From Nannocystis sp. (GTDB lineage: Bacteria; Myxococcota_A; Polyangia; Nannocystales; Nannocystaceae), in assembly GCF_016717175.1 (NCBI RefSeq), contig NZ_JADKFZ010000004.1: 64,000 nt of DNA, one strand, 5' to 3'. Below, one piece after another: positions 1 to 64,000 of the stretch. Each line of letters begins with the position of its first letter. The stretch's first letter is position 1. The translations under genes and the position numbers were made by a program. Under the pieces are notes generated by a model. That model was not told the origin of the DNA, ran no database searches, and was given only the letters and a program-made list of their open reading frames with translations.

Positions 1-826
1 TGTGGTCGCCGCCGGACACGAGGATCGTCGCGTCGGCGAGGCCGCTGACGGGGGCGGGCGCGCTGTGCTTGCTGGCGCCGTCACCGAGCTGTCCCTCGGG
101 ACCTGTCCCGAAGCACAGGACCTTGCCGGCCCGGGTGCGGACGCAGGTGTGCTGCGCGCCGGGGGCGACCTCGATGATGTCCGTGAGGCCCGGTACCTGG
201 GTCGGCGTGACCCAGGCGGTGCGGACCTCGTTGCCGAGCTGACCGCCGCGGTTGTCGCCCCAGCAGACCACGCCGCCGCTGCGGCGCAGGGCGCAGGTGT
301 GGTCGTCGCCGGCGCGCAGGTCGGTGGCGTCGTTGATACCGCGGACGACCACCGGCATGGCGCTGCGCGAGCCGGGTCGACCCTGGCCGTCGCCGAGCTG
401 GCCGTGGACGTTGCTGCCCCAGCACACGACCTGGCCGTCGCGGGTGCGGGCGCAGCTGTGGCTGGTGCCGAGGGCCAGCTGCACGGCGTCGGCGAGGCCG
501 CGGACGCCGACGGGCTTGGGGCTGTCGCGGAGGTTGCCGTCGCCGAGCTCGCCGCTGCTGCCGCGGCCCCAGCAGTCGACGCTGCCGTTCTCGCTGCGGG
601 CACAGGCATGATCGCCGCCGGCGGCGATCTCGACGGGGGGGCCGAAGGGGCTGACCTGGGTGCCCGTGCCGGGGCCGGGCTTGGTGGCGGTGCCGGTGCT
701 GCCGGTCGGTTTGCTCGGGGTGGTGCCGGTCTTGGTCGGGGTGTGCGTGCCGTAGCCGCGGGGGCCCTCGTCGCAGGCGGCGAGCGCGAGCAGGGGGAGG
801 GCGAGCAGGAGCTTACGGGCGGGCAT
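1..826 (-). CDS. RCC1-repeat lipoprotein, 5' complete, 3' end runs off the window
   Basis: Reverse-complement translation from the ATG at 824-826 gives MPARKLLLALPLLALAAC (lipobox) followed by repeated ...CWGxxxxGQLGDG... RCC1-type blades. Absent from the ORF track because there is no stop inside the window. Confidence 0.75.
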   Translation of the reverse strand, partial: MPARKLLLALPLLALAACDEGPRGYGTHTPTKTGTTPSKPTGSTGTATKPGPGTGTQVSPFGPPVEIAAGGDHACARSENGSVDCWGRGSSGELGDGNLRDSPKPVGVRGLADAVQLALGTSHSCARTRDGQVVCWGSNVHGQLGDGQGRPGSRSAMPVVVRGINDATDLRAGDDHTCALRRSGGVVCWGDNRGGQLGNEVRTAWVTPTQVPGLTDIIEVAPGAQHTCVRTRAGKVLCFGTGPEGQLGDGASKHSAPAPVSGLADATILVSGGDH

Positions 827-1299
827 CGAGCAGCAGTATGTGGGTGGCGCGCATTGGACTGCAATGCTCGTGCTGGGCTCGGGCTGGGCTCGCTGGGCTC
901 GGGTGGGCGACGCGGGGCGAGGCTGCCTGGGCCGGGGAGGGGGCCGACGGACTGTGGGGCCCTGCGACGCGGGTCCTCCCGGGGCACGTGCTCGCCGCCC
1001 ATCTGTCCCGATGGACAGGTTGATTTCACCGACCCTGGGGTCGCGGGGACGGGCGGCCGAGGGGCGTCTGCGCGCGAGCCCCGGGTCCTCCCGCTGCGCC
1101 CTCGCCGTCGGCCCCTTGTCCCCGGGCGGACAGCGTCGGCGCCCCGCTCACCGGCCCAGGTGCTCTCGCCCCGCGTGCTCACTCCGCGAGATGTCCGGAG
1201 CGAGACGTCGGGAGAGACGGCGGGCGCGAGACGTCGGGGGCCTTAAAAGGTCGCGGCCCGAAGCGGGAAGCTTCAGGCCGGTCGACGATCTGCTTGCTG

Positions 1300-1373
1300 T
1301 CGGGGCGAGAGGATTCGAACCTCCGACCCCCTGGTCCCGAACCAGGTGCGCTACCAGACTGCGCTACGCCCCG
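1300..1373 (-). tRNA. tRNA-Pro (anticodon CGG)
   Basis: Reverse complement CGGGGCGTAGCGCAGTCTGGTAGCGCACCTGGTTCGGGACCAGGGGGTCGGAGGTTCGAATCCTCTCGCCCCGA. 7-bp acceptor stem, GTTCGAATC T-loop, anticodon loop TTCGGGA. No encoded CCA. Confidence 0.9.
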
Positions 1374-62148: not shown

Positions 62149-62210
62149 CCCGGGCTGGCCCCCGGGACATGCGCCGAAGGACATGGCAGATCGGACATGT
62201 CCTCGCGGCC

Positions 62211-64000
62211 ATGTTGATCGCGGGCTGCGCGGCGCGGGGCAAGGGGACGGCGGCAGCGAGCGCGCCAGCGGCCGAGCAGGCGGCGACGGGCGGCGGGGCG
62301 GCGATCGCTGCGTGCACGCAGCAGGCGGCGGTCGTGGAGCTGGCGCTCGAGCGGCACGCGGATCGCTACCTGTGGGAGGAGATCGAGGCGCTCGTGCAGC
62401 GCTGGGTCGCGGCGGGTGGGGCGGGGTCCGGCGTCACGGCGGGCGGCGGGACGGCGGGGTCCGGCGTCACGGCGGGCGAGCTCGTGGCCTGCGGGCAGGT
62501 GGCCGAGGCGGCCTTGTTGGCGGCGGCGCGGCGCTGGGCCGAGGCGGGTGCGCGTGGCGGCGGTGGGCAGGACCACGACCTGGCGCAGCGGGCCTACCGG
62601 GCGCTGGCGAGCCACTTCCCGGGGGCGGAGCAGGAGCTGGACTTCGCGTTCGGGCGGCTCGACTGGGCGCGGGCGCTGCGGACCGCGAACGAGCTCGGCG
62701 AGCAGACGCTGGCGGCCGAGCTCTACGCGTCGGCGCAGCAGCACCACGCAGCGGCGCTGCGGCGCGGCGGGCTGCGGCCGGAGCAGGCGCGCATGGCAGC
62801 GAGCGAGCAGCTCGAGGCGACGCGGCGGGTGCTCGACTACCAGGCGGGCTGGCAGCCGACGGCGTGGTCGCCCGAGCCGTGGATCTGCGCGCCGGACCCG
62901 GGCGGGCGCTGCGTGACGCGGCCGAGCTCGGCGGTGACGATCCCGCTGCCGCCGGCCGAGGCGCAGATGCTGGCGGCGTACGAGCTGTACCTGGGGGAGC
63001 CGGCGACGCGCGAGCTGCCGGAGGCGGCGACGGTGGCGGTCGATAGGGCCGAGCTGCTGCTGCGGCATGGTCGGCTGGCGGAGGCGGAGGCGGGGCTGCG
63101 CGAGGTGCTGCGGGCGCGCGACGGCGACGCGGTGGGGGCGCGGGCGGGGCTGCTGCTGCTGCGATCGCTGCAGGCGCGCTGGCAAGATCCGGCGGCCTCG
63201 CCGGCCGCGCAGGCGCAGGCGCGGGCGGGGCTCATCGCCACCACGAGCGAGCTGCAGCGGCTGCGGGCGTGGCACCTGGCGACCCCGGCGGGCGAGGAGA
63301 TCCGGCGGGCGACGCCGGGGCTGCGGGCGGCGGCGCTGTGGCAGGCGGCCGCGGCGGCGCGCGCGAGCGGGGCCTTCGCCGAGTGCGCGCAGGTCCTCGA
63401 GGACATGTCCGAAGAGACCGGTCCCGAAGGCCAGCCGGAGTCGACGCTGCGCTTCGAGGCGGCGGCGTGTCACGAGGAGGGCGGGGCCTTCGCGGCGGCG
63501 ATCGCCGGCTACGGCGAGTGGCTGCGCCGCTTCGTCGGCGAGCCGCGGACGGCGGAGGCCTTGCTGCGCCTGGCCCGGATCAACGAGCGGGTGCAGAACG
63601 TCGAGGACGCGCGCGACTACTACATCCGCTTCGTGGCGCTGGCGCCGGGCGACGCGCGGGCGAACGAGGCGAGGCGGCGATCGATCGCGCTGGCGCTGGT
63701 GACCGGGACGGTCGACGCGGAGCAGGTGGCGGCGCTGACCCGCGATCGTCGCAGCGGTGATCGGCGGCTGGCGGCGGCGATCCGGTTTCGTACGGAGGTG
63801 CGCCCCGGGAGCCCGCTCGAGCGGGTGGCGGCGTACCTGCAACAGTTCGGGCGCGACGGCGGGGAGGAGCGGCTGGCGATCGCCCACCTGCGGGCGGCGG
63901 AGGCGTTGATGCGCAGCTCGTGCCCGGTCGGGGCGCTCGAGGGTCTGTGCGTCGAGGTGACGCGCGACCGGACGCTCGGGCGGGTGCTGCCGCGGGACCG
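62211..64000 (+). CDS. TPR-like helical-repeat lipoprotein, 3' end beyond the window
   Basis: ATG at 62211 with MLIAGCAARG lipobox, then ~590 codons open to the window end with Ala/Leu/Arg-rich TPR-like repeats. Absent from the ORF track because no stop is reached. Confidence 0.55.
   Translation, partial: MLIAGCAARGKGTAAASAPAAEQAATGGGAAIAACTQQAAVVELALERHADRYLWEEIEALVQRWVAAGGAGSGVTAGGGTAGSGVTAGELVACGQVAEAALLAAARRWAEAGARGGGGQDHDLAQRAYRALASHFPGAEQELDFAFGRLDWARALRTANELGEQTLAAELYASAQQHHAAALRRGGLRPEQARMAASEQLEATRRVLDYQAGWQPTAWSPEPWICAPDPGGRCVTRPSSAVTIPLPPAEAQMLAAYELYLGEPATRELPEAATVAVDRAELLLRHGRLAEAEAGLREVLRARDGDAVGARAGLLLLRSLQARWQDPAASPAAQAQARAGLIATTSELQRLRAWHLATPAGEEIRRATPGLRAAALWQAAAAARASGAFAECAQVLEDMSEETGPEGQPESTLRFEAAACHEEGGAFAAAIAGYGEWLRRFVGEPRTAEALLRLARINERVQNVEDARDYYIRFVALAPGDARANEARRRSIALALVTGTVDAEQVAALTRDRRSGDRRLAAAIRFRTEVRPGSPLERVAAYLQQFGRDGGEERLAIAHLRAAEALMRSSCPVGALEGLCVEVTRDRTLGRVLPRD

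Follow-up and report, generated by a model that had tools for sequence, protein, structure and literature searches.

A 10-bp palindromic unit repeated in a 14-bp register, and the hairpins it forms behind genes in Nannocystis

The repeat in the window and its 14-bp register

The stretch of DNA analyzed here (the "window", 64 kb of contig NZ_JADKFZ010000004.1 from Nannocystis sp.) is bacterial chromosome of 74% G+C whose genes include a pyruvate dehydrogenase (PDH) E1/E2 operon and genes for a CopA-type ATPase, a Ser/Thr kinase, FG-GAP proteins and M16 peptidases, and both its genes and its gaps carry copies of a short repeat whose unit is the 10-bp palindrome GGACATGTCC. The closest relatives of this DNA are metagenome contigs and one metagenome-assembled genome (MAG), at 93-96% identity; its E1-beta protein is 93-94% identical to that of metagenome and MAG contigs, 81-84% to that of Nannocystis species and 77-78% to that of Plesiocystis and Enhygromyxa, which puts the source in Nannocystaceae, near the sequenced Nannocystis species but outside them. 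Exact units start at 22352, 27518, 35322, 49883, 52091, 62193 and 63401, while dinucleotide shuffles predict 0.03 per window, an order-3 Markov model 0.08 and Markov simulations 0.05. An earlier note on this DNA had reported at least seven exact copies and a large excess, and both statements are borne out by these counts, its coordinates being 0-7 nt off. The variant GGGACAGGT occurs 19 times (0.54 expected) and the core TGTCC-N4-GGACA 15 times (0.03 expected). When degenerate and split sites are grouped in register, the window holds 28 clusters, in agreement with the note's figure of at least 20 further sites and including the one that it placed near 56610 (56615-56628). The sites are listed below, with spacers in lower case and the strand of genes in brackets.

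85-122: three degenerate units on the 14-bp lattice (CGAGCTGTCC ctcg GGACCTGTCC cgaa GCACAGGACC), in gene 2-826(-)
999-1022: hairpin core CTGTCC-cgat-GGACAG, intergenic, between gene 2-826(-) and tRNA-Pro
4031-4040: single degenerate unit GCACCTGTCC, in a gene
9963-10196: G-form array with three TGTCC-N4-GGACA cores, encoding most of the CopA insert, gene 9281-11818(-)
14040-14077: three-unit array, core TGTCC-tcag-GGACA, in gene 13522-15108(-)
14230-14239: single G-form unit GGACAGGTCG, in a gene
16112-16121: single G-form unit, in a gene
17991-18000: one-mismatch unit GGGCATGTCC, in a gene, frame Asp-Met-Pro
22338-22375: three-unit array, exact unit 22352-22361, core TGTCC-ctgc-GGACA
23078-23101: two degenerate units, in a gene
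25710-25878: tandem array of GGACAGGTCG units with a 27-bp period, downstream of the gene ending at 25470
27504-27541: three-unit array, exact unit 27518-27527, from 13 nt past the stop of gene 26514-27491(+)
27568-27605: second three-unit array (GGACATGTCT), an inverted copy of 27504-27541 including the spacers
35308-35345: three-unit array, exact unit 35322-35331, in the part of the pyruvate dehydrogenase E2 gene that encodes the flexible linker
36794-36817: two degenerate units, in a gene
39627-39664: three degenerate units, in a gene
40544-40581: AGACATGTCC cgag GGACATGTCT gtaa GGAGGTGTCC, with a 10-bp hairpin of -22.3 kcal/mol, in the gap upstream of an FG-GAP gene
45416-45439: two degenerate units, at the junction of genes 44739-45428(-) and 45367-45750(-)
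45776-45894: 39-bp tandem repeat, three copies, CTGTCC-tccg-GGACAG in each
47052-47061: one-mismatch unit GGGCATGTCC, in a gene
49869-49892: GGACATGTTC cttt GGACATGTCC, the window's best double unit, hairpin -21.7/-19.7 kcal/mol on the two strands, intergenic
51851-51888: three-unit array with GGACATGTCT central, in the putative anti-sigma gene 51407-52270(-)
52077-52156: array with exact unit 52091-52100, followed at 52133-52151 by GACCATGTCC-cgaa-GGACA, again in the putative anti-sigma gene 51407-52270(-)
54838-54861: hairpin GGCTGTCC-gagg-GGACAGGT, directly past the stop of gene 54555-54839(+), in a convergent gap
54881-54904: hairpin GGCTGTCC-gagc-GGACAGGT, its end overlapping the stop codon of the trypsin-like gene 54902-55804(-)
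56615-56628: core TGTCC-cgga-GGACA, in an M16 peptidase gene
57241-57380: direct-repeat GGGACAGGT array with 14- and 36-bp periods and without hairpin potential, filling the gap between two M16 peptidase genes
57962-57985: hairpin core CCTGTCC-cggg-GGACAGG, in a gene
62165-62216: four in-register units (GGACATGCGC, GGACATGGCA, the exact unit 62193-62202, GGCCATGTTG), from 17 nt past the stop of gene 60361-62148(+)
63387-63424: three-unit array, exact unit 63401-63410, in a gene, frame Asp-Met-Ser

The two arrays within 27504-27605 make up a 100-nt inverted repeat in which the spacers are complementary too (GTGG/CCAC) and which folds as a long hairpin of -75 kcal/mol (z -7.4); it has the look of one whole array duplicated in inverted orientation.

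The aligned hits define a lattice, [nnnCTGKCC]-N4-[GGACAKGTCC]-N4-[GGMCAGGnn], in which the 10-bp palindromic unit is followed by four unconserved bases to give a period of 14 bp. The register can be assessed in a "large sample" of 955 kb, composed of 114 high-GC loci and the window, in which the sites used for fetching the loci are masked when exact units are counted. The spacing k in TGTCC-Nk-GGACA is four in 161 cases, three in 3 and five in 1, while GGACA-N0-TGTCC occurs 69 times and GGACA-N9-GGACA 98 times. If up to two mismatches per unit are allowed, pairs of units have a period of 14, once 13 and never 12, 15 or 16, and the tally is 694 singles, 208 doubles, 21 triples and 5 quadruples. 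The adjacent pairs and triplets of the earlier note are therefore real but understated, the defining feature, a spacing of exactly 14 bp, having been overlooked. C4 and G7 of the unit hardly ever vary, while C and G are tolerated at positions 5 and 6, and G and C at positions 3 and 8. [quoted passage not shown] Because the unit equals its own reverse complement, two tandem units constitute an inverted repeat that can form a hairpin on either strand, and it is through the fixed 14-bp register that a direct repeat of the palindrome becomes a hairpin. Identical spacers are found in ~5% of double units and are the mark of fresh 14-bp tandem duplication, which may be the route by which the register propagates.

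The sequence GGGACAGGT/GGACAGGT, which the earlier note took for a separate half-site, is the unit GGACATGTCC with T6 changed to G (the "G-form"), and its orientation goes with whether the GC skew is positive or negative. Of the 29 plus-strand copies of GGACAGGT in the window, 19 belong to three tandem arrays (9977-10190, 25724-25876 and 57241-57347), and the independent places number 12 against 3 for the complement, where 3:1 is expected. The orientation ratio of GGACAGGT is 50:9 where the skew exceeds 0.05 and 18:53 where it is below -0.05, the order-3 expectations being 7.3:2.8 and 3.9:9.9. Since the order-3 strand model predicts about this orientation, no polar function is needed for GGACAGGT, and a polarity of GGGACAGGT like that of KOPS (FtsK orienting polar sequences) or Chi was rejected, base composition explaining the orientation bias. 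The skew in the window runs from +0.10 to +0.23 from end to end; it is of replication type, very strong for a genome of 72-74% GC, and its sign is independent of gene strand. Across the Nannocystis loci (L002-L120) it ranges from -0.19 to +0.18. Two other sequences are in plus-strand excess over the whole window, CGATCGCGG (30 against 7.2 expected) and ATCGCGGCG (27 against 4.9).

Lineage, hairpins and placement relative to genes

The distribution of the double unit was mapped by scanning 185,579 species genomes with the pattern GGACATGTYC-N4-GGACATGTCC, which gave at least 119 sites where ~2 are estimated to arise by chance. Among the matches listed, 114 of the 119 lie in 11 genomes of Nannocystis or Nannocystaceae and the other five are singletons in unrelated taxa; the matches listed per genome are 19 in RBIL2, 19 in N. 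bainbridge, 15 in N. punicea, 14 in N. radixulma, 11 in N. pusilla and 9 in N. exedens, in addition to those in MAGs. In the complete chromosome of N. punicea they extend from 0.5 to 12.7 Mb. The 955 kb of the large sample contain 69 exact units against 1.4 expected from a Markov-3 model, an enrichment of ~50-fold and a density of ~70 per Mb (1 per 9-13 kb), which extrapolates to ~900 copies in a genome of 12-13 Mb. A locus of N. exedens that was fetched via a protein holds one exact unit, five one-mismatch units and three cores, that is, 9 sites in 21 kb, while loci from other lineages (13 kb of Plesiocystis and 21 kb each of Enhygromyxa, a 61%-GC MAG and a 65%-GC Nannocystaceae MAG) hold none or a single near-match at chance level, no unit being found in those from Plesiocystis and Enhygromyxa. 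The motif family is genome-wide and restricted to one lineage, the Nannocystis type. The earlier note's genome-wide iterated palindrome, present in genes and in intergenic DNA, thus stands, with lineage specificity added, and the motif is neither confined to the window nor as rare as k-mer composition predicts, the two outcomes on which that note let its claim stand or fall. The MAG HK-STAS-MYXO-15 (L126, JACKDU01) has two perfect double units in the genome scan and no unit in the 21 kb around its PDH operon, and it may represent a lineage of low motif density. Orthologous gaps retain their units while loops and flanks diverge, an observation subject to ascertainment bias in the sample; for sites other than those used for fetching, the alignable parts of orthologous loci are mostly coding, and the synteny around the PDH operon is short and covers few of the window's sites.

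A double unit can fold on either strand into a stem of 10-14 bp with a 4-nt loop of unconserved sequence, and the hairpins of the window fold at -20 to -22 kcal/mol on both strands. Pairing reaches into the flanks and shows covariation there: of 117 double units, 69 are complementary at the first flanking position and 62 at the second (33.5 and 31.4 expected), by base pairs of several types (G-C, A-T, C-G and T-A). In 141 further unit pairs the complementarity is ~5 sd over shuffles and double changes are mostly compensatory. None of the Rfam covariance models run on the window matches the motif, the gathering score being reached by two tRNAs only. As in canonical intrinsic terminators, a GC-rich hairpin stands shortly past the stop codon; the run of U past the stem is missing. 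Terminators made of a hairpin plus a T run are not enriched in this genome either (1 found, 2.4 in shuffles).

Genes in the large sample were called with our own predictor, which is based on codon statistics and assigns 78% of the DNA to coding and 22% to intergenic sequence. By these calls, 185 of 196 units in double form (94%) are intergenic, as are 61% of the single exact units outside the fetch sites. Of the 98 intergenic double units that are flanked by genes on both sides, 62 have convergent neighbours, 33 co-oriented ones and 3 divergent ones, while just 17% of the intergenic DNA belongs to convergent gaps. Double units lie 1-50 nt behind stop codons: in convergent gaps their distance to either stop ranges from a few bases to some tens, and in co-oriented gaps their median position is ~20 nt past the upstream stop and ~300 nt ahead of the next start. 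Among gaps not used for fetching, the motif in any form is found in 44 of 79 convergent gaps (~56%), in 21% of co-oriented gaps and in 18% of divergent gaps. With public gene calls, the N. exedens locus has the motif in two of its three convergent gaps and another site 7 nt past a stop. This placement goes against two suggestions of the earlier note, that the copies lie in promoter regions, which is mostly wrong for the paired form in the large sample, and that they are a very abundant regulator site. A promoter or regulator-site reading was rejected, because a transcription-factor operator would be placed upstream at promoters and only 3 of 98 intergenic double units are in divergent gaps as against 62 in convergent ones, the co-oriented ones standing beside the upstream stop. 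The resemblance of CTGTCC-N4-GGACAG to a LexA box (CTGT-N8-ACAG) was treated as a coincidence in view of the copy number, the 3'-end placement and the base before TGTCC, which is A rather than C in about half of the cores.

At 54833-54904 the window has a 43-bp direct repeat (tgatgtgaGGCTGTCCgagSGGACAGGT) that sets one hairpin behind each of two convergent stops (54839 and 54902). These two hairpins, the arrays that start 13 nt past the stop at 27491 and the four-unit array that starts 17 nt past the stop at 62148 are the window's clearest examples of the placement. Two other convergent gaps, 23960-24090 and 29515-29640, contain repeats of another sort together with long CCTGAGG-based hairpins whose stems include the stop codon; they may be a second kind of 3'-end structure.

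Copies inside genes can be followed through the codons that encode them. The tripeptide Asp-Met-Ser occurs 42 times in predicted coding DNA against 13.9 expected, and its serine is TCC in 27 of the 42, where TCC makes up 15% of all Ser codons. The earlier note had the motif in every reading frame, which holds for degenerate copies only; all four exact in-gene copies of the window read GAC-ATG-TCC (Asp-Met-Ser), as do 24 of 37 in the wider sample. In the PDH E2 linker, the window and N. exedens have a three-unit array at corresponding positions, read in different frames, and a decayed form of it is present in the closest MAG. Single units in genes are kept by synonymous codon choice, at the DNA level and not the protein level; the existence of in-gene copies, their codon choice and the change of reading frame between species imply that the motif is maintained at the nucleic-acid level even where it can have no terminator role. 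The CopA-type ATPase gene 9281-11818(-) carries an array-encoded, in-frame, low-complexity insert of ~80 residues (DLSAGT/HLSQET repeats; window 9935-10215), which falls in the nucleotide-binding domain, where 102 residues stand in place of the ~20 of the solved A. fulgidus CopA.

Three further stretches of the window are repetitive in other ways. A near-pure G run of 87 nt followed by GGGGCCC repeats (19190-19301) lies in non-coding DNA between genes 17931-18671(-) and 20181-20558(-) and could be real or an assembly artefact. A 106-bp tandem duplication (19617-19819) has in each copy TGGCACCTTTCGTTCC, which resembles a sigma-54 -24/-12 promoter. At 20030-20156 there are 31- and 42-bp repeats based on GATACTCGCGGAGTCCTGCTGTGATAGC, TGATAGC occurring 8 times in the window against 0.9 expected.

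What the repeat may do and how it may have arisen

The reading that we consider probable, though by no means assured, is that short palindromic repeats interspersed in genomes of the Nannocystis lineage form a family with GGACATGTCC as its unit, and that its doubles are 3'-end hairpins, likely serving as two-way stops without a U-tract and/or as protectors. Neighbouring units on the 14-bp lattice form hairpins behind stop codons, mostly between convergent genes, where they would stop transcription arriving from either side, protect the 3' ends of the transcripts, or both. The sequence of the stem would be held fixed by a sequence-specific agent, perhaps a unit-reading protein, an uptake bias or biased repair. 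Single and degenerate units, including GGGACAGGT with its preference for the G-rich strand, are scattered in genes and in other gaps. A stem of fixed sequence beside free loops and flanks, the same 10-mer held by codon choice in genes, and the rigid register imply that something in the cells reads the sequence; candidates are an uptake bias like that for DNA uptake sequences (DUS), a protein that binds duplex DNA, an enzyme resembling the REP-associated tyrosine transposases (RAYTs), and biased repair.

A number of observations weigh against the hairpin reading. We infer termination and RNA protection from position only, and the gene calls of the large sample that define position rest on our own predictor. 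There is no U-tract behind the stem: T makes up 26-46% at positions +1 to +3, where it is mirrored by and paired with upstream A, and there is no excess beyond. The loop never departs from 4 nt, more strictly than a stable hairpin would need, and in lone TGTCC-N4-GGACA cores the sixth pair shows no covariation (A-T 35, C-G 34, A-G 34, C-T 29). Some arrays are direct repeats without hairpin potential (57241-57380, 25710-25878 and the CopA insert), and ~39% of single units and cores are inside genes. The two best hairpins of the window (40544-40581 and 49869-49892) are outside clearly convergent gaps by our gene calls, the orientation of G-U wobbles relative to the direction of transcription is only a trend (36 against 23), and compensatory changes could arise from template switching at quasi-palindromes and not from selection.

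One alternative is that base composition, codon usage or a few local duplications produce the motif and that there is no entity behind it. The count of GGGACAGGT is indeed inflated by the three tandem arrays, and its strand bias (4:1 over independent places) is close to the 3:1 that GC skew predicts, but no shuffle or Markov model reproduces the counts, and among the matches listed the double unit is nearly confined to one genus out of 185,579 species genomes; the enrichment over these controls and the lineage restriction refute the by-product reading, whose probability is negligible. A different possibility, which we think doubtful, is that GGACATGTCC is the recognition sequence of a dedicated system, either an uptake receptor or a lattice-reading protein that ends transcription or relieves torsional stress. 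In the form of a DNA uptake signal like the DUS of Neisseria or the uptake signal sequence (USS) of Pasteurellaceae, this is unlikely: a surface receptor that prefers DNA carrying GGACATGTCC would have spread about a thousand copies by uptake and recombination wherever they are tolerated, and pairs would have been co-opted as terminator stems. The 10-bp length, the ~70 exact copies per Mb (fetch sites masked) in one lineage, the presence in genes and gaps with an intergenic excess, the synonymous codon choice that holds the motif in genes, and the hairpin pairs behind genes, as formed by the USS of H. influenzae (PMC5217627), are all as such a signal would have them. The density, however, is ~10x below that of DUS or USS, known uptake sequences are not palindromic, neither the exact 14-bp register nor the three- and four-unit arrays are predicted, and no myxobacterial uptake sequence was found in the literature searched. 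Uptake concerns the origin of the sequence and could be compatible with a hairpin role.

The rigid spacing with free spacers, the invariance of C4 and G7 with position-specific tolerance elsewhere, the lone cores without covariation at the sixth pair and the arrays that are unable to fold (57241-57380) would all suit sites read in duplex DNA by an abundant protein that binds the 14-bp lattice cooperatively, with TGTCC-N4-GGACA as the operator of a dimer; half-site centres 9 bp apart would fit a helix-turn-helix dimer. Its place of action would be gene ends, where it could serve as a roadblock to transcription, for instance, or as a topological barrier where convergent transcription piles up supercoils. 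We hold this to be quite unlikely, since the covariation of flanks and of one unit with the other in double units points to pairing within a strand, and 14 bp is 1.33 helical turns and awkward for cooperativity on one face. Less probable again is a non-autonomous element of the type of the repetitive extragenic palindromic sequences (REPs) and their paired form (REPINs), in which a single-copy RAYT-like tyrosine transposase copies the hairpin after recognizing it in single-stranded DNA. Hundreds of copies of a lineage-specific extragenic hairpin at 3' ends and in convergent gaps match the REP/REPIN profile (PMC3116915; bioRxiv 10.64898/2026.03.23.713779), and a few arrays have the identical spacers that fresh copies would have. 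Yet conservation stops at the 10-bp unit, a GTAG-like head is absent, the copies are unlike descendants of a master element, many single units are in genes, and orthologous sites are kept across species and not gained and lost (with the ascertainment bias given above). A HIP1-like palindrome generated through biased repair, linked to a methyltransferase or of the very-short-patch type that converts near-matches to GGACATGTCC, is highly improbable: a CATG/ACATGT core is typical of modification sites, maintenance in genes is at the DNA level and one-step variants are abundant, but neither the strong preference for gaps behind genes nor the 14-bp register is explained, and the density is far under that of HIP1.

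If the family does consist of 3'-end hairpins, Nannocystis, a source of natural products with genomes of 11-13 Mb, would gain a marker of transcript ends that would aid operon prediction and the design of expression constructs. The modular lattice is a new way of building two-way hairpins and shows how 14 bp, once duplicated in direct tandem, can give rise to an inverted repeat. Finding the reader of the sequence could reveal a new termination factor, uptake system or repeat-spreading enzyme, and if it were truly an uptake receptor, this would be the first genome-wide drive of DUS/USS type in Myxococcota and the first with a palindromic signal.

Comparison with known systems

The highly iterated palindrome HIP1 (GCGATCGC) of cyanobacteria is a short palindrome that occurs about once per kb, coding DNA included, and is not tied to hairpins behind genes. 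The Nannocystis unit is likewise a short exact palindrome far over expectation across a lineage, but HIP1 is ~10x denser and evenly spread, whereas the unit occurs once in exact form per 9-13 kb with a bias to the intergenic 22% of the DNA (61% of singles, 94% of doubles) and in a fixed register, so that the HIP1-like label of the earlier note does not apply. Of the three analogies which that note offered, a regulator site fails on placement and the DUS-like one has the best architectural fit, given paired motifs that form hairpin stems behind genes and lone copies that lie within genes.

The hairpin-only ("I-shaped") terminators and the conserved TRIT terminator motif of mycobacteria belong to high-GC genomes whose 3'-end hairpins are without a U-tract, one hairpin of conserved sequence coming back between convergent genes. 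The double units are similar in being 3'-end hairpins without a U-tract in a high-GC genome, with one sequence recurring in convergent gaps; they differ in sequence, in lineage and in the modular 14-bp lattice of a self-complementary unit.

In the 8 million full texts searched, no report of the motif, of Nannocystis palindromes, or of REP-like or uptake sequences in myxobacteria came up, and the sequence GGGACAG(N)15TGTCCC of Bifidobacterium animalis looks coincidental. REPs and REPINs are extragenic hairpin repeats with hundreds of copies in 3' untranslated regions and convergent gaps (PMC3116915; bioRxiv 10.64898/2026.03.23.713779), and in E. coli REP elements are reported to cause partial termination and to protect upstream mRNA (bioRxiv 10.64898/2026.03.23.713779). 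The double units resemble them in number, in forming extragenic hairpins and in lying in 3' untranslated gaps and between convergent genes. REPs are strictly extragenic imperfect palindromes of 20-40 nt; the hairpins of the double units measure 24-32 nt and are 94% intergenic, and single units are common in genes (the ~39% of singles and cores given above). A GTAG-type head and conservation of the whole element are absent from the 118 double units, the Nannocystis repeat conserving its 10-bp core only, with free loops and flanks.

The USS of Haemophilus and Actinobacillus, finally, form inverted pairs that are the stems of terminator hairpins at the 3' ends of genes (PMC5217627). USS and the DUS of Neisseria are lineage-specific motifs of 9-12 bp with many copies in genes and gaps, and the Nannocystis unit shares this character, being a lineage-specific motif of ~10 bp in about a thousand copies, with hairpin pairs behind genes and singles within them. 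It differs in being ~10x sparser, in lacking a U-tract behind the hairpin, in being itself palindromic, which is why direct tandem copies make the hairpin, and in a register fixed at 14 bp. The kind of element, hairpin repeats of conserved sequence behind genes, is thus known, while its construction is new: a self-complementary 10-mer set in a 14-bp register, extended into arrays, and held by codon choice where it lies in genes.

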